Shown in pieces: positions 3,739-35,101 of a DNA stretch of 38,211 nucleotides; within the stretch, counting starts at the first letter, position 1; each line of letters starts with the position of its first letter. The DNA lies in the IMG/VR virus record IMGVR_UViG_2695420600_000008; one strand, written 5' to 3'. Source of the DNA: a virus (Duplodnaviria; Heunggongvirae; Uroviricota; Caudoviricetes). The notes beneath the pieces are model-generated. The model made no database searches and was not told where the DNA came from. It saw only the letters and a list, made by a program, of their open reading frames with translations. The translations under genes and the position numbers were made by a program.

Positions 3739-6532
3739 TATCCGGGTCGCTTTCAGCGCCGTTGACAGGCTGACCCGGCCTGCCGAAAACGCCCGCCGCC
3801 TGATGGGGCAGTTTGGTGACTCCATCCAGCGAACGCAGGGGGCGATCAAAAATCTCGAGCGTCAGGCGCGTTCATTTGAGCGCGCCCGTGACGCTGTCAG
3901 TAAAGCGGATGCGGGCATCGTGAAAGCACGACGCCAGCTTAACGCCCTTAATCAGTTACAACGCACGGGTACAGTGCTCAGCGAAAAACAACAAAAGCTG
4001 ATGCAGCAGTTAAGCACCCGGCTTGAACGCCTGAATGAATCGCGCACACGGGAAATTCAGAAAATGCGGGAACTTGGCGGAGAGCTGAAACGCCACGGCA
4101 TTTCCCTGACAGGCAGCGATAACACCATCCAGCAGGCCATCAGACGCACCGGACAATACAACAACCAGCTTGAACGCGAACGGCGGGCGCTTGCGCGTGT
4201 AACGCAGGCGCGTGAGCGGTATTCACGCGCGCAGGAAACAGCGGGAAAACTGAAAACAGGTGGTGCGCTGGCAACAGGTGCGGCGGCAGCGGGCGGCTAT
4301 GCTGCCGGGCGTTTTTTGCAGCCCGCTATCGGGTTCGGGAAAGAGATGTCCCGTGTTCAGGCACTGACGCGAATCGATAAAAACAGCCCGCAGTTTAAGG
4401 CGCTGCGTGAGCAGGCGTTAAAACTTGGCTCTGAAACGCAGTTCACCGCAGGCGATGCCGCCAGTGGACAGGCATTTCTTGCAATGGCTGGTTTCACACC
4501 GCAGGCCATTCAGGCTGCGCTTCCCGGCGTGCTGAGCATGGCAACGGCTGGCGGTATGGACCTCGGCGAGACGGCGGATATTGGTTCCAATATCCTGACG
4601 CAGTTCGGCCTCTCTGCTGACCAGATGGACCGGGTCGGTGACACACTTACCGCAGCGTTTACCCGTACCAACACTGACCTTCGCGCACTGGGCGAAACCA
4701 TGAAATATGCAGGTCCGGTGGCGGGTAAGCTGGGAATATCGCTGGAGCAGGCCGCAGCGATGGCGGGCGTGCTGGCGAAGATGGGTATCAGGGGGAGTGA
4801 TGCAGGTACAGCGTTGCGTAAAAGCCTGGCCAATCTGTCATCACCGCCAAAGGCAGCGGCAGAAGCACTGAAAGAGCTGGGGGTGTCAGTTGCTGACGCC
4901 AAAGGCAAAATGCGCCCGATGGAGAATGTGCTGGCCGATCTCTATAAAGCCACCCGCAAATACGGGGAGGTTGACCGGGTATCGTTCTTTAAGGACATTG
5001 CCGGAGAAGAGGCTTTCACATCATTTATGGGCCTCGTTGATGCGGCAGGTGACGGCTTCTTAGCCAAACTGAGAAAAGAACTTGAAGGCGCGCGCGGTGA
5101 GGCAGAACGCACGGCAAAGGTTATGGCCAATAACCTTGATGGCAACCTGAAATCACTCGGCAGTGCATGGGAAGGTCTGCGTATTCGCATCAGTGATCTG
5201 GTTGACGGTCCGCTGCGTTCTGTCACGCAGTGGCTCACGCGGGTTGTCTCAAAGGTGACGGCGCTGGCGCAGGCCCACCCGGCACTGACGCGCCAGTTAC
5301 TGATAGCGGGAGGCGCACTGCTGGCGACAACAGCAACGGTTGGTTCGTTGTCTCTGGTTATTGGGGTGCTTCACGGGAAGCTGGCTACGTTGCGTCTCGG
5401 TTTTTCTCTCCTGACCGAATCAATGAATGTTGTCAGGGTTCTGCCTGCATTATGGGGAATGGTGACGGGTTCCGTTTCTTTACTTGGTGGCGCTATCGGG
5501 GCGCTGTTCAGTCCGGTTAGTCTTATCGTGGCTGCGCTTGCCGGAGCTGCCGTTCTTATCTGGAAATACTGGGATCCCATCAGGGCATTTTTTGCCGGGG
5601 TGTTCAGCGGGATTATGGAAAGGCTGACCCCGTTGCGCGAAACCTTTGAACGGTTTGGCCCTGTTTTTGATGTCGTGCGCGATGGGATTATTCAGGTCTT
5701 TAACTGGTTTAAATCGCTGCTGTCACCGATGGAGTCCAGCAAGGAAACGCTGGATAAATGTGCCAGTGCTGGCGAGATATTCGGTAACGTTCTTGGCGGT
5801 GCGTTACAACTTGTTCTGACACCTGCAAAAATGCTACTGGATACGCTGGCGTGGATACTTGAAAAACTTGGCGTCCTTCCGGATGAAGCGGAAAGGGCGC
5901 GCAAGAAAATCGAAGACGCACAGCGTGCGGCCATTCTTCAGGACAAGGTTGCCTTGCTTCAGGGGGACCTGGCGAAAATCAATCCGCCGAAGCCTGTGGA
6001 AAATGGCAATGGCACCGGAGGTGATAAACCCAAAGACAACAAACCGCTCACAGACAGCAATACCGGGACGCTACGCAGACTCAGCAAAATTGCTGATAAC
6101 ACAGGTAAGCTGGTTGATGAGACGAAAAAACGCATTGGCCCCGGCGATATTGTCTTTAAGAACCTGCCCCGCGCACTTGCTGTTCGTGGGGAGTGGCAGG
6201 AGCGGAAGATTGCGCAGGTCAGTAAGCCTGCCCCCGCAATTAATATCACACCCGTGGTCCCGGCTCCGCTGCCTCCGGCGCTGGTCCCTGTTGTTGCGGC
6301 CAGCTCCCGCCCGGTGGCGGAGGCCATACGCTCTCCAGTGGCATCAGTTCCTGTAACTTCCCGTAACCGGGAGCCTGTTGCCTCCGGATTTGGTGGTGAA
6401 ATTCATGTTCATCTGCATAACGTTGTTACGCAGAATCCCCGCGAACTGGCGAAACTGGTCGGTGAAATGGTCAGGGCAGAAATGGAACGGCGCGCCCGTG
6501 CCGGGCGTGGCAGTTTTTACGATAAAGATTGA
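3716..6532 (+). CDS. T: tail tape measure protein (P2 gpT-like)
   Basis: Long ORF (3689..6532); alternative starts GTG 3689, ATG 3716, ATG 3725. Ala/Gly-rich central region, hydrophobic segment LLIAGGALLATTATVGSLSLVIGVL, positioned after E/E'. Confidence 0.85.
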   Translation: MQTMKTLDIRVAFSAVDRLTRPAENARRLMGQFGDSIQRTQGAIKNLERQARSFERARDAVSKADAGIVKARRQLNALNQLQRTGTVLSEKQQKLMQQLSTRLERLNESRTREIQKMRELGGELKRHGISLTGSDNTIQQAIRRTGQYNNQLERERRALARVTQARERYSRAQETAGKLKTGGALATGAAAAGGYAAGRFLQPAIGFGKEMSRVQALTRIDKNSPQFKALREQALKLGSETQFTAGDAASGQAFLAMAGFTPQAIQAALPGVLSMATAGGMDLGETADIGSNILTQFGLSADQMDRVGDTLTAAFTRTNTDLRALGETMKYAGPVAGKLGISLEQAAAMAGVLAKMGIRGSDAGTALRKSLANLSSPPKAAAEALKELGVSVADAKGKMRPMENVLADLYKATRKYGEVDRVSFFKDIAGEEAFTSFMGLVDAAGDGFLAKLRKELEGARGEAERTAKVMANNLDGNLKSLGSAWEGLRIRISDLVDGPLRSVTQWLTRVVSKVTALAQAHPALTRQLLIAGGALLATTATVGSLSLVIGVLHGKLATLRLGFSLLTESMNVVRVLPALWGMVTGSVSLLGGAIGALFSPVSLIVAALAGAAVLIWKYWDPIRAFFAGVFSGIMERLTPLRETFERFGPVFDVVRDGIIQVFNWFKSLLSPMESSKETLDKCASAGEIFGNVLGGALQLVLTPAKMLLDTLAWILEKLGVLPDEAERARKKIEDAQRAAILQDKVALLQGDLAKINPPKPVENGNGTGGDKPKDNKPLTDSNTGTLRRLSKIADNTGKLVDETKKRIGPGDIVFKNLPRALAVRGEWQERKIAQVSKPAPAINITPVVPAPLPPALVPVVAASSRPVAEAIRSPVASVPVTSRNREPVASGFGGEIHVHLHNVVTQNPRELAKLVGEMVRAEMERRARAGRGSFYDKD

Positions 6533-24600: not shown

Positions 24601-25091
24601 CGCGCTTCGCTTGTCTGCTGCTTCGCCGGGGCATAAAAAATTTATGCCCCGACTCTCCAGCTCCTGTATCAGTCAGATAATTTCACGACGCTTTCCTGCT
24701 GATTGCCATCATCGACAGTCAGACTCTTACGCAATCCCACCTCGTTGACTGCATATTCTCGCCGTCTCAGTGCGATTTTGACGGCCTTACCTTTCACCCC
24801 ATCAAATCAAAAGCCCTCACGTCTTTTTCACGCTCAGCGTGAGAAATACAGCCATTCTGTTGTATCTCTGCGACATCGTTCAGGGAATGCTATTTACCCC
24901 CTGAAACGCGGGCTGTTCCCCCGTCACCTGCGCGCAGAAAAAACGCGTTTTTTTGTGCATGCACGGATCCTTGACGGATCCAGCCGCCACGCGGGCCGGA
25001 AGGGCAAAAAGTCGTTCAAAAAAATTGTGCAAATTTGTGCACTATTGTGCATTTATAAAATCAACTAAAAAACACCTAGTGTGACTTACCT
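24601..25091. other. probable cos/packaging region (non-coding, repeat- and palindrome-rich)
   Basis: Non-coding gap between portal and the end of the early operon, where P2 cos lies; contains palindrome ggggcataaaaaatttatgcccc (24628..24650), palindrome aaaaaacgcgtttttt, direct repeat acggatcc x2 and phased TTGTGCA repeats. The exact P2 19-nt cos sequence was not found. Confidence 0.4.
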
Positions 25092-25277
25092 CTACCACTC
25101 GATCGGCACGTAGTCATTAAGTTCCGGAGACCAATTGCACTTTTCACATCTGTGTTTTCCATTCTGGCAGATACATAAACGATAACGGCCACAATGCGGG
25201 CACCCATTTTCACCATTATCATAATCACCGAGCGACCATTCCTGCATAAGCAGCTCTTCTTCATCATCATTTAGCAT
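25092..25277 (-). CDS. hypothetical zinc-ribbon protein (cysteine-rich, 61 aa)
   Basis: CPHCGRYRLCICQNGKHRCEKC cysteine cluster; acidic N-terminus; last gene of the early operon next to cos. Confidence 0.5.
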   Translation of the reverse strand: MLNDDEEELLMQEWSLGDYDNGENGCPHCGRYRLCICQNGKHRCEKCNWSPELNDYVPIEW

Positions 25278-25291
25278 TAATCCCCCTTGAG

Positions 25292-25531
25292 CTATTTACT
25301 CTTCTCGGCCCTCAAAATCATACGAGAACCATCATCCAGCTCCCAATTAATTTCACCGCCTTCTGCCATGACTAGATGCCAAACGAGTTGAGCGGCCTCG
25401 TTGGTTACATCGCGACCGCGATCATTTCCTACGCGGCGTTTTGTTCCGTCTCCTAAGTCACGCATTTTTGCCAATACGATGGTTTTTGATAGCGGTGAAA
25501 AACCAAGCTGTAGTCGTGCTGAATTACTCAC
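25292..25531 (-). CDS. hypothetical protein (79 aa)
   Basis: ORF in operon context, overlapping the upstream gene by 4 nt; no recognisable motif. Confidence 0.45.
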   Translation of the reverse strand: MSNSARLQLGFSPLSKTIVLAKMRDLGDGTKRRVGNDRGRDVTNEAAQLVWHLVMAEGGEINWELDDGSRMILRAEKSK

Positions 25532-26052
25532 TGGCTGCCCCCTTTGTACTGTGTTAACTCTTCCTGCTCCTGCATCATGCGATTGACCTGAACGCGTGTG
25601 CGTCGAACGGCAAAATTAAATTGAAACATGAGCCGGAACATTTCTGATGCTTCCGTGTGAGCATCACGGATAGGTGACAGGCGGTACAGTTCTGCCTCCG
25701 TAGCTTGTTGAATCAATGACAGATCAAATTGAAGTGCGGGTCTGGTACATTTTGCACATCTGGCAGCAAGCTCCGGTATTAGTCTCTTAACGAAGGTGTT
25801 TTGCACCGCTTTGTTGATTTGTGTCTGCATCCAAATCGCAAATTTCAGCGAACGCATAAGTTTGATAGCCTCGGGCAGCGGCAGATAGATCATGCTGGTA
25901 GATTTGGGTGGTTGGTGAACCATCTTCACGGATACGCGATTTCGCAGCGTTCGGAAAATCGTGTTCCCAACAACAGCTTCTACGGATACAGGACAGGGAG
26001 CCAGACCAGCCCGCAGTGCTTCTTTCATTAGCATGTATTCGTATTTTTTCAT
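25528..26052 (-). CDS. hypothetical protein (174 aa)
   Basis: ORF in operon context; no recognisable family by eye. Confidence 0.5.
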   Translation of the reverse strand: MKKYEYMLMKEALRAGLAPCPVSVEAVVGNTIFRTLRNRVSVKMVHQPPKSTSMIYLPLPEAIKLMRSLKFAIWMQTQINKAVQNTFVKRLIPELAARCAKCTRPALQFDLSLIQQATEAELYRLSPIRDAHTEASEMFRLMFQFNFAVRRTRVQVNRMMQEQEELTQYKGGSQ

Positions 26053-26112: not shown

Positions 26113-26424
26113 TCATTCAGGAAATAATGCCCGGATATTCCCTGCTATCTGACTGGTTATCTGTGCGGTTGGTACTGGCTGTGGCACGGGGCGTTCTGTC
26201 CTGGTTTGTGTCACCGATAACGCCTCATCGTCAGCCCATGCAGCCAGTCGGTAAGCCTCTGCTGGATTCATTTTCAGAAGTGCCAGCCCGGCCAGAAAAG
26301 CCACGCGTTGGCCGCTTTTGCGGGCTTCTGGTGTAAGGCTGCCCAGCCAGGCGCATGCTTCGCTTTCGTTCTTGACGGCCGCAGGCTTCAGATAGAAACT
26401 TATCCGTCTGGTTGGTGTCGTCAT
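26113..26424 (-). CDS. parR: ParR/StbB-like centromere-binding protein (putative)
   Basis: ORF 26113..26559; preferred start 26424, giving ~104 aa directly downstream of parM; resembles plasmid R1 ParR as I recall it (RRISFYLKP vs RRTIAFKLNP; C-terminal IRALFPE vs LRSLFPKE). Confidence 0.55.
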   Translation of the reverse strand: MTTPTRRISFYLKPAAVKNESEACAWLGSLTPEARKSGQRVAFLAGLALLKMNPAEAYRLAAWADDEALSVTQTRTERPVPQPVPTAQITSQIAGNIRALFPE

Positions 26425-26428
26425 TGGT

Positions 26429-27388
26429 TTACTCCTTGTCCATTGCGTACAGCCCATTAACCAGAGCAAACTGTGGCACCCCGTCCGCGATGAAAGTCGC
26501 ATTAACTCCGCAGGCTTCGCGGATAGCGGGTGCCACAATCTCCGCCCCTCCACCGACAACCATCACCCGCCCGTAACCCGAAAAACCCGCCAGCGCGCGG
26601 ATCACGCGTTGTTTCAGTGTTTCTTCCTTTTCACGAATAACCGCCATCAGGCTGGCGTAATGCGCGTCATTGTGGATGTGCTGGCGCAGCCAGGCTTCAT
26701 CATGGCGATGTTCGATAATGGTATTGGCGATGTGGTGACTGGTGCGCATACCGTTAGTGGCCATCACCGACAGTACGGCATCGGCCATCAGAGAAACGCC
26801 TACGTGTGGATCGCAAAACACCTGGCTGATACCTGCCAGTTGCCCCTGAACCTTTGCCACATCCAGCGTGGTTCCGCCCAAATCCACAATCAGCAGGGAT
26901 TCAAACGGACTCATGTCAGCCAGTGCCTTAAAGCCAGCCGGAATGGATTCAGGCATAACCCGCACGTTACGGATAGTGAATGCTTCGCCGTTCTGGTACT
27001 CCACCGGGCGCATAACGTTCGCTTTTTTGCGGTTGATGTTGGCCATGTCCGGCTGTGCGTTTGTGTCGAAATACTCGCTCAGTGGCAGGGTGACAACCAC
27101 ATCCACCTCCTGTGGCGTGATGCCTGATTTGACCAGCGCGTGATGAATGGCAATGACATTTACATCGCTGTACTGGTATTGCGTGTCGGTTGTCTGGACA
27201 AAGCGATCGCTGACCGGATCAAAACCATAGCGCACGCCATCAAGCATGTAGTTCGCGGGCTGCATGCCACCGAACGGCGCAGACCATTCCGACTTGAAGC
27301 TGTTCGGGCTGATGGCGTTGCGGCGTTCGCCGTTCTCAGTCCATGCCAGCTTGATGTTGGTGGAGCCGTCGTCGATACAAATTTTCAT
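26429..27388 (-). CDS. parM: ParM/StbA-like actin-type plasmid segregation ATPase
   Basis: 319 aa; MKICIDDGSTNIKLAW…ISPNSF…YSDVNVIAIHHAL…VMPESIPAG…LIVDLGGTTLDV…GVSL…VVGGGAEI strongly resembles R1 ParM including the actin-fold phosphate loops. Confidence 0.8.
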   Translation of the reverse strand: MKICIDDGSTNIKLAWTENGERRNAISPNSFKSEWSAPFGGMQPANYMLDGVRYGFDPVSDRFVQTTDTQYQYSDVNVIAIHHALVKSGITPQEVDVVVTLPLSEYFDTNAQPDMANINRKKANVMRPVEYQNGEAFTIRNVRVMPESIPAGFKALADMSPFESLLIVDLGGTTLDVAKVQGQLAGISQVFCDPHVGVSLMADAVLSVMATNGMRTSHHIANTIIEHRHDEAWLRQHIHNDAHYASLMAVIREKEETLKQRVIRALAGFSGYGRVMVVGGGAEIVAPAIREACGVNATFIADGVPQFALVNGLYAMDKE

Positions 27389-27415
27389 GTCGCTTTTCCT
27401 TATGTTGATTAATTA

Positions 27416-27531
27416 ATCGTTTACGGGATTCTGAAATCCCGTTTTTGCCTGTTTTGTGCGCGCTTCATATATCGCTGCGCGTTTTTTGCTCATTTACGGG
27501 ATTCGTGAGTCCCGTTTCTGTCTGTTTTTTG
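27416..27531 (+). repeat. two copies of a ~42-bp hairpin-containing direct repeat upstream of parM (candidate parC centromere/operator)
   Basis: Copy 1 hairpin acgggattctgaaatcccgt (27423..27442) then ttttgcctgttttgtg; copy 2 hairpin acgggattcgtgagtcccgt (27496..27515) then ttctgtctgttttttg; copy 2 lies in the 3' end of the A coding region. Confidence 0.5.
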
Positions 27532-30287
27532 TTTCCACTGGTCAGGCCACCCCGCAGCAGGTCTGCTTTGCGGCGGGCGCGTTCAGTGGTTTCACTGATT
27601 CTCTGTGCGTGCTCTGCGTCGCGGATGGCGCGCAGCATGTCAGAAAGCACGGTAACGGGTGTTTTCATGGTGTTCTGGTCCTGCTGAAGTGTGGATGCCA
27701 GGCGTGCGGCGGCTTCAGGGTCTGATGCCCCCAGCTGTGTCAGATAGCTGGCGACCGGGTTATGGCGGATCTCCGTGCTGCTTACGCCATGATTACGGCT
27801 CAGGCGCTGCCAGAGCTGCGTGATTCGGCTGTCCGGGCGGGTATCCGGTTTGCGTACAATTTCAAATCCCTGCGGTGCAATGATGCTGCCGTCAACGTAC
27901 AGACTGCCGCCCCGTAACAGGTGCTGCATCTGTTGTTCACCGATATGCAGGCCGAGAGATTCAGCAGACTCCCGCCATTCTTTAGCGAGTAATTCGTGGT
28001 TATCAGGCAAAGGCCGCTGCTGTTTGCGGCTCTGTGTCCAGCTCTGCATTTCATCACTGCTGTTTTTTGCCTGTTTGTCACGAAGCGAACGCATCAGCGC
28101 CCGGCGTTCGTGCCGTTTCAGTGAGCGCATCCATTCATCCACATCAACGCCGTCAGGGAGCTGCGGCCACGGTGCTGGCCGTTCTTCCGGCTGTTCTGTC
28201 CCGTTGTTGTCCGTTTCCTGTACACGGGGACAGTTATTGCCACGAGTCCAAGGGGCGGCAGGGCCGCCCTGAAGGTCAAAACCATTTTCGCGGGCGCTGT
28301 CTTCCGCTTCCGGTTTGCGTCTTACCAGCTTCCAGTTATCCGGATGCGTGCACACACGGGAGGATTCCCCGATGAGTGGTGACCAGATCCCGTAAATCTG
28401 TACGCTCTGTTCGCCGTAATCGTTCAGCTCATCGGCGAGGTCGTAGGCGGTGCGAATCAGGTAGTCTTTGCGTGGAACAAGTACGCCGCCCTGTTTCTCT
28501 ATGTAGGTGGCAAAACATCCGGCATCAGCGGCGGCAAGAACCGCATCCATTGCGTCATCCTTCAGCCGTTGCGGGCCTTCCGGGTTGCGTGCCATCTGGC
28601 TGGCAAGGCGGCGCAGTTCACGCCATACCTGGCGGGAGGGGATGCCAAAGAACTGGAACTGGCGGACCCGGTGAAGGCGCGCCCAGCCGATGGCGCGTTC
28701 CACGCTCTCGGCCATTGATTTTCCGGTTTCGTGGTCAACGCGTGGCTTGCCCGTTTTCGGGTCGATGCCATCCACGGCGCGGCTGTCCAGGTTTTTCCCG
28801 ATGTAGGTGGCGATGTAGCTGGTTGGCGTGCCTTTTGAGCCGTCTACATACTCCGCCTTAAAGCGCGGAGTTATGTCATCGCCCAGCTCGTGACGATCTT
28901 CCTGAATGGCAATATCGCGGGTGTGGGACACAATGGTGTCGATTTCTTCCGGATGAGCAAAGACCATCATATGCCAGTGCACGGTGCCGTCATGGTGAGG
29001 CTCCGCCGTGCGGATGCCATACCAGCGCAGGCCGTCGCGGTTCAGTTTTTTGCGGACCGTCGCAAAAAACGTGTTAACCAGGTAATCGCTGGAGTCGCGC
29101 ATTGTGGCCCCGTTCCATTTGGGATTCGGATGACCGTTCTCCGTTGTGGCGTGGTATTTTGACGGGCAGGTGACAGTCAGAAACACCGCTTTGTCGCCAC
29201 GGGCTTCGGCCAGAAGTTCCAGCCCCTTCATGGTGGCCATCATTTCTGCCTTACGGTGAACCGGGTTACTTACTCCCGCGTAATACACCGTCTCGAGATC
29301 AATCGTGAACCCGTCTTCATTTTCCAGCATGAAACTTTTCAGGAAATCGCGTGTTTTCTCGCGCTGTGCGCGAAACTCGCTTAACGCGTCCTGGCTCAGA
29401 TAGGGCGATGTTTTTCTGGAAACCAGACAGGCGGCGCGAAGTTGTTCTTCTCTCCACTCGCAACGTAACAGCCACAGTTTGCGTTTCCACCATTCCGCAC
29501 AGGTCAGGCGAAGGATTGCGCCCGGCAGCAGTTCTGTGTCCGGTTCGTGCCTCCGGTCTTTGTCTGTTGTCAGTGCGTCATAATGCGGAGGCATGGCGTG
29601 TAAGTGTAACGCCATGCGGGCCAGCATCTGATACGCCTTCAGCGTTACATCCATGGTCAGCTCGCCATCAGTCGCGCCAAAACCATCGCAGAGTTTTTCG
29701 AAGGTGCTGCTGAACATCGCCGCCGTCATGGTGGCCAGCGTCTGTATCTGGTGTTTGTTGAGTTGCGGCAGGTAAAGCAAATCGTCCAGGCGTTCACGTC
29801 CGGCAAGGGAGCGATAACCCGGTGTCAGCCAGTGTCCGTCAGTGCGATCCAGACGTTCGAATATTTTGCGCAGGGTTCCGCGTGCATAGCGTTCCGCCTG
29901 CCAGCTCTTTTTGCCTTTCCGGCGATCGGCTTCCTGTTTTTTGCGCAGGAAGGAGAGGTGGCGAATAAGCGGATCGCGCAGATAGGACGGCAGCAGGCGC
30001 AGCGAGGCCATGGCTTCATCCACCGCGCCGCGTGCCTGTTTTCTGGCGTCTCCTGCCAGTGTGATGGTTTTGTCCTGTTTTTCCTGTGCGTCCAGGCTTT
30101 TATTAATCAGGTTGCCCAGTGGCGTGGCGGAGAACGCCGCATCAGCCATTTCCTGGCGGCGCTCGTTCTCTGCCCGGTGGGCATCCAGCCAGGAGGAAAG
30201 CGCGGATTCAGGAGCGGGGATCCCCGTTCCTTCACGCCCCACTGCGTGGCGCGGTTGTTGCCAGTCCCTGATGTACTCTGCCGTCAT
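27465..30287 (-). CDS. A: replication initiation endonuclease gpA (rolling-circle initiator)
   Basis: 940-aa ORF; central region (…FLTVTCPSKYH…WYGIRTAEPHHDGTVHWHMMVF…YIATYIGKNLD…) resembles the P2/186 GPA family; long C-terminal extension relative to my memory of P2 A (~760 aa). Confidence 0.8.
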   Translation of the reverse strand: MTAEYIRDWQQPRHAVGREGTGIPAPESALSSWLDAHRAENERRQEMADAAFSATPLGNLINKSLDAQEKQDKTITLAGDARKQARGAVDEAMASLRLLPSYLRDPLIRHLSFLRKKQEADRRKGKKSWQAERYARGTLRKIFERLDRTDGHWLTPGYRSLAGRERLDDLLYLPQLNKHQIQTLATMTAAMFSSTFEKLCDGFGATDGELTMDVTLKAYQMLARMALHLHAMPPHYDALTTDKDRRHEPDTELLPGAILRLTCAEWWKRKLWLLRCEWREEQLRAACLVSRKTSPYLSQDALSEFRAQREKTRDFLKSFMLENEDGFTIDLETVYYAGVSNPVHRKAEMMATMKGLELLAEARGDKAVFLTVTCPSKYHATTENGHPNPKWNGATMRDSSDYLVNTFFATVRKKLNRDGLRWYGIRTAEPHHDGTVHWHMMVFAHPEEIDTIVSHTRDIAIQEDRHELGDDITPRFKAEYVDGSKGTPTSYIATYIGKNLDSRAVDGIDPKTGKPRVDHETGKSMAESVERAIGWARLHRVRQFQFFGIPSRQVWRELRRLASQMARNPEGPQRLKDDAMDAVLAAADAGCFATYIEKQGGVLVPRKDYLIRTAYDLADELNDYGEQSVQIYGIWSPLIGESSRVCTHPDNWKLVRRKPEAEDSARENGFDLQGGPAAPWTRGNNCPRVQETDNNGTEQPEERPAPWPQLPDGVDVDEWMRSLKRHERRALMRSLRDKQAKNSSDEMQSWTQSRKQQRPLPDNHELLAKEWRESAESLGLHIGEQQMQHLLRGGSLYVDGSIIAPQGFEIVRKPDTRPDSRITQLWQRLSRNHGVSSTEIRHNPVASYLTQLGASDPEAAARLASTLQQDQNTMKTPVTVLSDMLRAIRDAEHAQRISETTERARRKADLLRGGLTSGNKKQTETGLTNPVNEQKTRSDI

Positions 30288-32721: not shown

Positions 32722-33033
32722 ATGTCAATAGAGATATCAAAGAAGCTAAAAGCAATTCGAGAATCTGAGGGGCTTAGTCAGGCAAAGTTCGCGGATTCAA
32801 TAGGTATTGCGGTTGGTACGGTTAAGCAATACGAGACTGGTATTCGAGGTGTGGGAACGGAGGTTTTACTGAAAATCACAATGCACCCGGAATTTAAAAA
32901 ATACACTACGTGGTTGATGAGTAACGAAACAAATGAGGCTGCTGGGCAGATCAGTCCTTCTCTCTCCCCTGATGGGCCAGAAAACACATCGTCTTCTCAA
33001 AAATCCCGCAAGACTGGCACACAGCCCGGCTAA
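32722..33033 (+). CDS. C: P2 C-type immunity repressor
   Basis: ORF 32620..33033; preferred start ATG 32722 giving 103 aa; helix-turn-helix LSQAKFADSIGIAVGTVKQYETG and the C-terminal …FKKYTTWLMSNE…GQISP… pattern resemble P2 C. Confidence 0.75.
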   Translation: MSIEISKKLKAIRESEGLSQAKFADSIGIAVGTVKQYETGIRGVGTEVLLKITMHPEFKKYTTWLMSNETNEAAGQISPSLSPDGPENTSSSQKSRKTGTQPG

Positions 33034-33082
33034 TCATGGAACGCTGGGGGCATGGTGGTCTTGTAACGCTGGGGCTTCACGA

Positions 33083-34060
33083 ATGAGCATAAAATCAATT
33101 CCGGGAGGGTATCTTCTTGACATGCGTCCTGAGGGGCGTAAAGGCAAACGCATTCGCAAAAAATTTAAAACGAAATCGGATGCAGTTTTATATGAGCGGT
33201 GGGTGCTGGCGCAACAGCATAACAATGAGTGGAAAGGAAACTCCATTGATCGCCGTCCGCTGTCAGTGCTTATTGACTTGTGGTGGAAATACCACGGCCA
33301 GCTAATGAAGTCAGGGCATAACACGCGCCTTAAATTGCTGCGCTTGAGTGAGGCAATGGATGACCCGTGCGTGCATAAACTTAATACAACGATGCTCACC
33401 GAGCTACGTGTGTCCAGGATAGAGCAGGGGATACAGCCCAGCACCATAAATCGAGAGATTGGGGCGTTAAGCGCGATGTTTACCGCACTCATCTCATCCG
33501 GCCATTTTCTTAACGATAACCCCGTTCAAGGCCTTAAAGGAATGAAGGTTAACGAGCGTGAAATGGGATATCTGAGTAAGTCTGAATGTGTTCAGTTGCT
33601 GGATGCACTGGCTGAAAATCCCGATGAACGGCTGGCCGTCGAAATCCTTCTGTCGACCGGGGCGCGATGGGGCGAGGTAGCGGCACTGGAGCAGCGCCGT
33701 GTTCTTCATTGTCGAATCACTTTTTCAAAAACGAAGAACAGCAAAAACCGTACCGTTCCTATTTCTGAAAGCCTGTTTGAAAAGATCAAAAAACGGGGCG
33801 GGAAACTGGTGTTTCCGACGCTGGATTATTCATTGGTTCGCGATGTCATCAAAACGGTCGCACCTGATGTTCCTGACGGCCAGGCTGTTCATGCGCTGCG
33901 CCACACCTTCGCCAGTCATTTCATGATGAACGGCGGCAATATTCTGACGCTCCAGAAAATTCTGGGGCACGCAAAGATTCAGACAACGATGATTTATGCC
34001 CATCTTGCGCCGGATTACTTGCAGGATGCGGTGAGGTTTAATCCCTTGGGAGGAATGTAA
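33083..34060 (+). CDS. int: P2-type integrase (tyrosine recombinase)
   Basis: ORF 32933..34060; preferred start 33083 (MSIKSIPGGYLLDMRPEGRKGKRIRKKF…), ~325 aa; C-terminal catalytic motifs LSTGARWGE, HALRHTFASHFMMNGG.ILTLQKILGH and MIYAHLAPDYLQDA (catalytic Tyr) match P2 Int. Confidence 0.9.
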   Translation: MSIKSIPGGYLLDMRPEGRKGKRIRKKFKTKSDAVLYERWVLAQQHNNEWKGNSIDRRPLSVLIDLWWKYHGQLMKSGHNTRLKLLRLSEAMDDPCVHKLNTTMLTELRVSRIEQGIQPSTINREIGALSAMFTALISSGHFLNDNPVQGLKGMKVNEREMGYLSKSECVQLLDALAENPDERLAVEILLSTGARWGEVAALEQRRVLHCRITFSKTKNSKNRTVPISESLFEKIKKRGGKLVFPTLDYSLVRDVIKTVAPDVPDGQAVHALRHTFASHFMMNGGNILTLQKILGHAKIQTTMIYAHLAPDYLQDAVRFNPLGGM

Positions 34061-34062
34061 CT

Positions 34063-34563
34063 ATGGAAATAAAAAAACCTACAAAAAAAGAGTTATATGA
34101 CTATTTACTATCGAAATATATAGAAGATAAATGCAAAGAAGAAGCTGATGAAATCAATAAGAAGTCGATGAGTCGTGTCAAAAAACATAAAGAGCGGCTG
34201 ATGGAGATTACGCCAGAAATCTTCTTCCGTTTCTTGTCTGAGAAGGGGGTCTCCAGTGTCTGCCCTTCATGTGGATCGTCGCGATTATCTGTTCCAGAAA
34301 GTATGGATCTTTGCTGGGATAAAAATAAGAAACCAGAAAATTTTAACAATCTACCCCTGGAGGAACAGAGTGAGTTAATTAAAGAGAACATAAAGCATTA
34401 TGTATCTTATGCTTTTTTGGGTGATGTTAAGAGCATACCTGATATGCGCAAAACTTATTACACGCTGCATTGCCTGAATTGTGGTTACCTGAGCCTTTAT
34501 CGTACGTCTGCGGTGCTGAAGTGGTTGGAGAAAGACAAAGCGCAGGATGGTGATAATGGGTAA
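34063..34563 (+). CDS. hypothetical zinc-ribbon protein (166 aa), AT-rich moron gene
   Basis: Low GC by eye; two CxxC pairs (CPSCGSS … CLNCGY); lysine/glutamate-rich N-terminus; no homologue recognised. Confidence 0.55.
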   Translation: MEIKKPTKKELYDYLLSKYIEDKCKEEADEINKKSMSRVKKHKERLMEITPEIFFRFLSEKGVSSVCPSCGSSRLSVPESMDLCWDKNKKPENFNNLPLEEQSELIKENIKHYVSYAFLGDVKSIPDMRKTYYTLHCLNCGYLSLYRTSAVLKWLEKDKAQDGDNG

Positions 34564-35101
34564 TGTAGCAAGAAATCTTTTCGGTAATTCAGCAGGTAGT
34601 GTGTCGCATTCTGAGCGTGATGTGCTTTATCATGGTGGCGATGGCGGCAGTAGTGGAGGCGGAATGTCAGATAAACTTGAAAGGCGAATTGAGCGGCTCG
34701 AAGGTGATTTATCGCTAACAAGAAACGACCTTGCGACGCTTGCTGAACGCACTACAAACCTCTCAACTAAAGCCGATGTTGGTGAGGTGAAAGGTGAACT
34801 CAAAGCAGACATAGCACATCTGAAAGGTGATCTTGAATGCGATATTGCGAATCTGAAAGGTGAGCTTAAATCTGATACAGCTAACCTGAAAGAGCAGCTC
34901 AAATCAGACATTAACAGCCTGAAGGGTGAGCTTACCGAAGCGATGGATAAACGCTTTGACAAGATTATGGATGAGATGAATCGGCGGTTTGACAAGGTTG
35001 ATGATAATACGAAGTGGCGTTGGAGTGGCATTATTGTGCCAGTGTGCACAACCATTTTCACAGCGGCGGTTGCTGTATTTGTTGCTAAATTTGTTGGCTG
35101 A
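34547..35101 (+). CDS. hypothetical tail-anchored coiled-coil membrane protein with five 11-residue repeats (184 aa)
   Basis: Repeats LKGELKADIAH / LKGDLECDIAN / LKGELKSDTAN / LKEQLKSDINS / LKGELTEAMDK; glycine-rich N-terminus; C-terminal transmembrane helix WSGIIVPVCTTIFTAAVAVFVAKFVG; overlaps the upstream gene by 17 nt. Confidence 0.55.
   Translation: MVIMGNVARNLFGNSAGSVSHSERDVLYHGGDGGSSGGGMSDKLERRIERLEGDLSLTRNDLATLAERTTNLSTKADVGEVKGELKADIAHLKGDLECDIANLKGELKSDTANLKEQLKSDINSLKGELTEAMDKRFDKIMDEMNRRFDKVDDNTKWRWSGIIVPVCTTIFTAAVAVFVAKFVG

Follow-up and report, generated by a model that had tools for sequence, protein, structure and literature searches.

Why does a temperate phage that integrates into its host chromosome keep a plasmid segregation machine, under strong purifying selection and in about one quarter of complete Escherichia coli genomes? 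The question is raised by a 38,211-nucleotide stretch of Caudoviricetes DNA (IMG/VR record IMGVR_UViG_2695420600_000008; this whole stretch is the window in what follows), whose positions 26113..27531 hold, on the minus strand, two hairpin-forming repeats, a gene for an actin-like ATPase (parM) and a small gene for its putative adaptor (parR). An earlier, sequence-only reading had recognized here a partition module of the plasmid type, had considered it out of place in an integrating phage, and had offered an episomal phase, a hybrid origin or co-option of the module as ways of accounting for it. The module proves to be standard in P88-like (Xuanwuvirus) phages, and the elements that carry it are, with few exceptions, found integrated. 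In our judgement the proposal that the cassette is a type II (ParMRC-like) partition system acting in cis on the circular phage genome, and not on a stable plasmid prophage, has about as much in its favor as against it, and the evidence on both sides is set out below.

The first step concerns the identity of the proteins. That the 319-residue product of parM (26429..27388, minus strand) has the actin fold of ParM/StbA, as had been claimed, is borne out by matches to the Pfam families StbA_N (2.7e-82) and ParM C-terminal domain (1.3e-68), and by an alignment over the full length of ParM from plasmid R1 (PDB 1mwk, E 8.5e-93). The motifs DDGSTNIK, DLGGTTLD and GGGAE are kept, and the phosphate-binding and adenosine-binding motifs are intact, in line with a function as an actin-like segregation ATPase. 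The gene is under strong purifying selection, with a median ratio of nonsynonymous to synonymous substitution rates (dN/dS) of 0.05 across 66 distinct parM sequences and an intact open reading frame (ORF) in 151 of 157 related loci. The six remaining loci include a 317-residue length variant (L034) and an internal cassette deletion (L129, positions 4002..4290), in which both repeats are kept and cassette nucleotides 204-1327 are lost, so that the beginning of parM is joined to the last part of parR. Occasional decayed copies were noted at L099, L046, L036 and L067 as well, and a few loci have interrupted parM ORFs, all of them counted among the six. The leader of the gene, comprising the 28 nucleotides before its ATG (27389..27416, minus strand), contains an AAGGA ribosome-binding site and the element ATTAATCAA, which is also present in the Plesiomonas and Hafnia loci; its nucleotide diversity (pi) of 0.025 is the lowest among the non-coding stretches measured. 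All diversity figures given here derive from loci fetched by ParM, independently of the palindrome described below.

Four nucleotides separate the parM stop codon from the ATG, at 26424, of parR (26113..26424, minus strand), which is predicted to encode a centromere-binding adaptor of 103 residues; a 148-residue ORF with a TTG start, taken from a mechanical ORF list, was rejected as the parR gene. The small ParR-like gene that the earlier reading had placed after parM belongs to Pfam Plasmid_stab_B (PF10784, the StbB 'plasmid stability protein' family; 2.1e-23) and to PHROG 2515, so that hidden Markov model searches matched both the ParM/StbA and the ParR family at this locus, and PHROGs labels both products 'partition protein'. 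The two ends of ParR and its middle have evolved differently. At the N-terminus the TRRISFYLKP strand region is invariant, and at the C-terminus a NIxxxFP tail is conserved, whereas the intervening linker (residues ~65-92) is hypervariable, dividing the proteins into two allele classes, T1 and T2, that are ~52% identical overall (loci L017-L216); dN/dS is 0.18-0.28 at the two ends and 0.70 in the linker, and beside this variable segment ParM stays 95-100% identical. In a sequence alignment the NIxxxFP tail lines up with KNAMKLIN at the C-terminus of R1 ParR, which we take to be its ParM-binding tail (the R1 ParR sequence used is 100% identical to plasmid records). This pattern of variation is as would be expected for an adaptor, and the hypervariable linker might also define incompatibility groups among phages that share a cell.

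The second step concerns what travels together. Repeat, spacer, repeat, parM and parR occupy 1419 bp (26113..27531), and the limits of this cassette could be read from contigs in which it has a different neighbor. IMG/VR contigs were fetched by the palindrome pattern and, independently, by ParM, and two of the pattern set (L061 and L081) carry the cassette beside replication genes that are 31% and 40% identical to gene A of the window. In both of them nucleotide homology to the window sets in at 27530-27532, where the distal repeat has its outer edge; the other limit, seen in L061, is 26112, one base beyond the parR stop codon. The range of identity of the gpA genes next to which the cassette occurs extends from 31% to 100%. 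Because the outer edge is shared by loci with unrelated gpA genes, the repeats belong to the par module, as its candidate cis element, and the five parts together constitute one recombinational module. This co-transfer is the strongest evidence here for considering the repeats as the candidate parC or operator. An overlap of the repeats with the 3' end of gene A, pointed out by the sequence-only reading, does exist in the window, where the last ~22 codons (27468..27531) are encoded by the distal repeat together with part of the inter-repeat spacer, inside which the stop codon (27465-27467) also falls. Its meaning is another matter, as the distal repeat of L061 starts after the stop of the preceding ORF and the overlap is absent there, so that it is best considered incidental, the gene A frame of the window simply running into the cassette. 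The L061 layout, together with the association of the repeats with parMR beside gpA genes of 31-40% identity, also led us to reject an origin belonging to gene A, or a coding constraint, as an account of the repeats.

The module has a wide distribution and a long history in phages. Of 5426 complete E. coli genomes, 1308 (24%) carry it, the carriers retrieved including O104:H4 and O26:H11 genomes, and other Xuanwuvirus phages as well as Citrobacter phage phiSM have it too. In Hafnia, Plesiomonas, Serratia and Enterobacter, P2-like prophages contain ParM homologues of 54-63% identity, each accompanied by a PF10784 ParR, and these diverged parMR pairs share one slot, with gene A on one side and cos and the portal gene on the other. 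The genes downstream of them vary among the genera and include HicAB, a KAP NTPase, a DUF3800 protein and SSB. All ParM homologues with at least 54% identity are located in P2-like prophages; the three examined at 52% or less lie beside Rep3, ParA or Tra genes, in contexts of plasmids or integrative and conjugative elements (ICEs), and the closest plasmid ParM proteins are at most 53% identical. A neighbor-joining tree, from which no monophyly is claimed, sets two prophage clusters apart from the plasmid clusters. Thus, the slot common to several genera, the confinement of close homologues to prophages and the distance to plasmid ParM proteins mark this as an old, phage-adapted ParMR lineage and not as a recent plasmid capture. 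One 98%-identical ParM was encountered on a 226-kb contig labelled 'Vagococcus sp. WN89Y' (L004, NZ_JBQPOM010000071.1), which is probably enterobacterial contamination or a mislabelled assembly.

If the cassette is a partition system, the repeats should be where its adaptor binds, and their anatomy makes ParR binding plausible. The proximal (27417..27458) and distal (27490..27531) members, the latter forming the outer, 5' edge of the cassette, are 42-nucleotide direct repeats with 81% identity, 73 bp apart from start to start, each with the 8-bp-stem hairpin that had been described for them. The hairpin is formed by a palindrome, ACGGGATT-N4-AATCCCGT, which is perfect in the proximal repeat (27423-27442; the left half of this 42-nucleotide repeat is AACAGGCAAAAACGGGA) and has one mismatch in the distal repeat of the window (27496-27515, ACGGGAyT-N4-AATCCCGT), a position at which most relatives have a perfect copy. 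Between the repeats lies a spacer (27459..27489) with GC-rich ends and an AT core (CGCGC..GATATAT..GCGCG). When the palindrome is searched for at up to three mismatches, the 38 kb yield two sites, both in the repeats, against 0.11 expected, and two were reached in none of 100 shuffled sequences. Related arrangements recur across genera. The 17-mer AACAGGCAAAAACGGGA is exactly the same upstream of parM in E. coli and in a Serratia P2-like prophage, whose ParM proteins are 58% identical; the Plesiomonas locus likewise has two direct repeats, 72 bp apart and overlapping the 3' end of its gene A; and in Serratia and Enterobacter a larger inverted repeat begins with the same A-tract and GGGA element.

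A different function for these hairpins, that of terminators, had been offered as the alternative to a centromere, and its merit depends on the strand considered. On the plus strand both hairpins do have the shape of a terminator, an 8-bp stem and a 4-nucleotide loop followed by a T-run, with folding energies of -10 to -11 kcal/mol, and in this orientation they could stop late or antisense transcripts from entering gene A. If one adds that stem diversity is near neutral and that most stem changes are single transitions, the repeats could be regarded as mere terminators or RNA hairpins of the plus strand, with the true ParR site located elsewhere or the partition function lost. The T-runs, however, are present on the plus strand only, antisense to A, parM and parR, and on the coding strand A-tracts come before the hairpins and AAACGATT or AAATGAGC after them, with no U-run. 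Because of this orientation the repeats cannot terminate transcription of A or parM, and an intrinsic terminator for either transcript is ruled out. Nor is there a plus-strand gene within ~2.8 kb upstream of the repeats whose transcript they might end, and in transfers they accompany parMR rather than gene A or the late genes; moreover, the A-tract and the CGGGA half are kept in Serratia, where no such hairpin follows. A structured RNA was rejected as well, since an Rfam search of the repeat region gave no family match and compensatory changes are absent, and the strong z-score obtained for a 166-nucleotide fold is uninformative, as it arises from the two palindromes pairing with each other. 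Purifying selection on parM and parR, for its part, counts against a lost partition function. Terminators or RNA hairpins, with a binding site elsewhere or a function gone, therefore strike us as a very improbable description of this region.

The case for a centromere at the repeats, and with it for partition in cis, has to be weighed against a number of observations that speak against it. In the E. coli clade palindrome diversity (pi 0.055-0.10) compares with 0.050 at parM third positions and 0.083 at gene A third positions, so that no conservation of the palindrome in excess of synonymous sites was seen; changes in the stems are mostly single transitions, with no compensatory pairs among 65 variants. 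Repeat haplotypes did not co-vary with ParR allele classes, a result that is expected if the invariant N-terminal strand reads the DNA, but which lends no positive support. A k-mer test for a repeat motif common to all five genera gave nothing beyond shuffled sequences, phasing of the A-tracts at 10.5 bp in the manner of R1 was marginal (reached by 125 of 2000 shuffles), and with two palindromes the number of sites falls well short of the ten iterons in R1 parC. Structural prediction did not help either, as the AlphaFold model of the ParR monomer is of low confidence (predicted local distance difference test score, pLDDT, of 59) and leaves the ParR fold unconfirmed. Its helices at residues 20-29 and 32-52 fit a ribbon-helix-helix fold, although the N-terminal strand is not formed, and they are followed by a disordered segment (62-85) and a C-terminal helix (86-100); the model was too poor to be used as confirmation of the fold and was dropped for that purpose, and ParR had no match among PDB sequences at E<=1. 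To these points is added the position of the cassette at the edge of a known anti-phage hotspot, by which a role in trans becomes possible. The suggestion that the repeats serve as centromere or operator thus retains its credibility from their co-transfer with parMR, with ends that agree with the positions given for them in the sequence-only reading, and gains none from excess conservation or allele co-variation.

The third step is to ask in which form the carrier elements exist. The window itself is an integrated P2-family (P88-like) prophage of E. coli. Its membership of Xuanwuvirus (P88-like Peduoviridae) follows from 97.8% DNA identity to P88 over 81% of a 5.7-kb query and from the same gene order, and its integration from the host side, where a tyrosine integrase gene (32933..34060) is followed by genes for a FecCD-family permease, a glutathione peroxidase, an ABC ATPase and an NlpC/P60 protein (presumably btuC-btuE-btuD-nlpC), joining the window to the host chromosome. 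A partition system in such an element could mean that P88-like phages are facultative phage-plasmids, the cassette allowing them to persist for many generations as low-copy circular plasmids. A low-copy episome would indeed need a partition system, and P2-type replication yields monomeric circles. Rousset et al. (2022, PMC9122126), who reported a 'putative plasmid partitioning system' in the gpA-gpQ hotspot of about a quarter of P2-like phages, speculated that the phages carrying it are 'maintained as plasmids'. One database entry seems to fit this idea, a 34,461-bp circular record deposited as an E. coli plasmid (NZ_CP148288.1, L002), which is a complete P88-like genome with integrase, cox, repressor, parMR and all structural genes; it could represent a genuine episome or the assembly of an induction product, as a lone circular contig can arise by spontaneous induction in the sequenced culture.

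Survey data point the other way. In the 5426 complete E. coli genomes the cassette occupies 1454 chromosomal places and 2 plasmid places, and an unsplit attP was present in none of the 442 genomes, of the same integrase type, that matched a 1.1-kb attP-spanning query from NZ_CP148288.1, a test that is blind to a circular record split at its own start. Of the larger 'plasmid' matches, the two that were examined are large conjugative resistance plasmids and contain the cassette within P88-like prophage sequence embedded in the plasmid. In the first, a 228-kb IncC plasmid carrying KPC (NZ_MK439959.1, L220), the A-parM-parR prophage sequence adjoins IS26 and Tn3 transposases, and in the second, a 272-kb IncHI2 plasmid (NZ_CP110658.1, L221), the embedded prophage sequence likewise includes A-parM-parR; a role of the cassette as the partition system of ordinary plasmids was rejected, as both of the large-plasmid matches examined have it among P88-like phage genes. 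All elements examined carry integrases, and no plasmid-type replication-control module was noticed in them, the P2-type gene A being the only initiator noted, in the course of work that included no systematic search for Rep genes. Apart from the one 34.5-kb circular record, then, an autonomous circular replicon in a lysogen was not encountered, and the episomal lysogenic phase suggested at first has almost no support left. The normal lysogenic state is clearly integration, stable plasmid maintenance by the cassette is unlikely, and a facultative phage-plasmid life is, in our view, an improbable explanation for its presence.

If the lysogen has no plasmid to partition, the substrate of a cis-acting system would have to be an extrachromosomal circle of the phage genome that exists for a short time, that is, during infection before integration, after excision, or during P2-type replication. 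The proposed course of events begins with ParR dimers, which, through an N-terminal head of the ribbon-helix-helix type, would bind the four ACGGGAT half-sites of the two palindromes 73 bp apart. The resulting complex would form a small segrosome and would probably repress any promoter present there, as in R1. The ends of ParM filaments would then be captured by the conserved C-terminal tail of ParR, so that ATP-driven polymerization of ParM could push site-bearing DNA molecules apart. Timing would be provided by the distal position of the cassette within the early leftward operon, where it is probably co-expressed with the replication genes at the time circles exist. This is the simplest reading because the 76-bp gap between A and parM has neither a sense-strand terminator nor a good promoter: no consensus promoter was found in it, and the nearest approach to a sigma-70 promoter, TTCAGA-16-ATTAAT, is a weak one (8 of 12 positions) that has its -35 element, TTCAGA at 27435, inside the proximal palindrome. 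A minus-strand terminator is present near cos (25042..25027). The payoff may be that fewer cells lose an unintegrated or excised genome at division, or that replication and packaging are better organized in space. In its full form, as a 'viral spindle' in which ParM and ParR-bound palindromes segregate or position P88-like circles before integration, after excision and during P2-type replication, this scheme is put forward tentatively, as something we find rather doubtful but worth stating.

The location of the cassette allows it to be considered from a different angle. The gpA-gpQ hotspot holds old, tin and many defence systems (PMC9122126), and HicAB, a KAP NTPase and a DUF3800 protein are among the neighbors of parMR in relatives, so that ParMR, expressed from the prophage, might conceivably act in trans, either in lysogenic conversion or defence by way of partition incompatibility, destabilizing incoming plasmids, phage-plasmids or related superinfecting phages, or on the host chromosome where the prophage is integrated. 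Diversification in the ParR linker and the existence of two allele classes do recall arms-race evolution, yet a disordered tether would equally explain a variable linker, and ParM is nearly invariant and not diversifying. A PADLOC search gave no match for the cassette, whose repeats are moreover unlike the iterons of R1 parC. In every case the cassette has retained its cis repeats and stayed in the slot adjacent to gene A, whereas true hotspot cargo varies. On balance a function in trans seems unlikely to us, and action in cis on the circular phage genome remains the preferred reading.

The surroundings of the cassette are those of a P2-like early region. Reading along the minus strand, gene A (27465..30287) encodes a P2-type replication endonuclease of 940 residues (Pfam Phage_GPA, 6.6e-131), which is context and lies outside the cassette; it is followed by the gap, parM, parR and three small ORFs (25092..26052) that occupy the variable gpA-gpQ hotspot between parR and the cos-proximal region and are replaced by other genes in relatives. 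These ORFs encode a 174-residue protein with no match in Pfam, PHROG or PADLOC searches, a DUF7446 protein (79 residues) and a zinc-ribbon protein (61 residues). Beyond them comes a non-coding stretch, in which cos should be found by analogy with P2, and then the portal and terminase genes on the plus strand. Several further features were noted in passing. A hairpin with a 10-bp stem, GGGGCATAAA..TTTATGCCCC, stands directly 3' of the portal gene stop (24612..24650) and has a T-run on neither strand, and the cos-proximal region includes a AAAAAACGCGTTTTTT palindrome (24935..24958). Two overlapping plus-strand ORFs of 166 and 184 residues (34063..35101), the second coiled-coil-like, lie between the integrase gene and the FecCD-family (btuC-like) permease gene. 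Within gene A an 801-bp segment (27540-28340) is 100% identical to the prophage of E. coli O104:H4 FDAARGOS_349 (L222), while the best match of the par cassette among complete genomes reaches only 99.0% and is in a different strain, a discrepancy that shows mosaicism around the cassette boundary.

Neither the feature nor the idea of an episome is new, both being known from RefSeq and P88 annotation and from Rousset et al. 2022 (PMC9122126); a literature search for functional studies of the module returned annotation-level mentions and a single sentence of that paper, and a study of a Citrobacter rodentium prophage lists a phiSM protein as a fitness factor (PMC6456863). What is new here are the exact boundaries of the cassette, the anatomy of its candidate parC, the pattern of selection on ParM and ParR, the synteny across genera, and the survey evidence against stable plasmid carriage. 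If the cassette does act on transient circles, then actin-like DNA segregation, known from plasmids, would have a part in the life cycle of a common temperate phage of enterobacteria as well, and lysogenization efficiency, prophage retention or burst size would be set by a cytoskeletal system present in around a quarter of P2-like prophages and of E. coli genomes. The system is a tractable one, since P88 is inducible, the cassette is 1.4 kb long with defined ends, and the candidate half-sites are four and short. For annotation there is a practical corollary, namely that presence of the cassette is no evidence that a contig is a plasmid.

Several known systems are close to the cassette. With ParMRC (StbA/StbB) of plasmids R1 and R100, the type II partition system, it shares the order of (candidate) cis site, parM and parR, repeats immediately upstream of parM, a ParM that aligns from end to end and has the same nucleotide-binding motifs, and a ParR of the same Pfam family, PF10784, with the RRxIxFxLxP N-terminal strand region and a C-terminal tail aligning with KNAMKLIN. 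It differs from the plasmid systems in that its ParM lineage was found only inside P2-like phage genomes and its host element is an integrated prophage, in a ParR of 103 instead of 117 residues, and in a repeat region that has no consensus promoter; and whereas parC of R1 consists of ten 11-bp A/C-rich direct iterons, the cis region here has a pair of 20-bp palindromes at a distance of 73 bp. The same cassette exists in P88 and other Xuanwuvirus phages, the region being 97.8% identical to P88 in DNA and ParM 99.7% identical, and its two genes, which lie between gpA and gpQ, bear the annotations 'plasmid segregation protein ParM' and 'partition protein' there. The window departs from these phages in nothing essential: its integrase and attachment site differ from those of some relatives, as does the cargo downstream of parR, and its distal palindrome has the one mismatch. 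Phage D6, whose record is a 91-kb phage genome, has an StbA-type ParM with 47.8% identity and is presumably a P1-like phage maintained as a plasmid prophage, whereas the element studied here encodes an integrase and occurs in integrated form in nearly all genomes.

Two systems of elements that normally reside in a chromosome are experimental precedents for the function proposed here. SrpMRC of the SXT/R391 ICEs is a type II-like partition system that acts on the transient circular form of the element and reduces its loss (PMC4489591). Its centromere, srpC, lies upstream of the ATPase gene and includes four short repeats, direct and inverted, with half-sites that bind poorly, and its SrpR shows no homology to known ParR proteins (PMC4489591); the likeness to the present cassette thus lies in type II-like partition on a normally chromosomal element, and the differences are that the host of SrpMRC is an ICE and not a phage, and that the ParR described here is a clear member of the StbB family. 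In the prophage CGP3 of Corynebacterium glutamicum, AlpAC with its site alpS consists of an actin-like filament former and a co-transcribed adaptor that binds sites in the promoter region in front of the operon; expression of the system is induced early, and efficient replication of the excised circular phage DNA depends on it (PMC4446434). Phage and host phylum are unrelated to those of the window, the adaptor gene comes first in AlpAC, and the likeness is one of description. Even so, an integrated prophage, an actin-like protein and an adaptor with sites upstream (candidate sites in the cassette) are common to both, and if the cassette does act on the transient circles of P88-like phages, it would be the parallel in these enterobacterial phages of AlpAC in Corynebacterium and of SrpMRC in ICEs.

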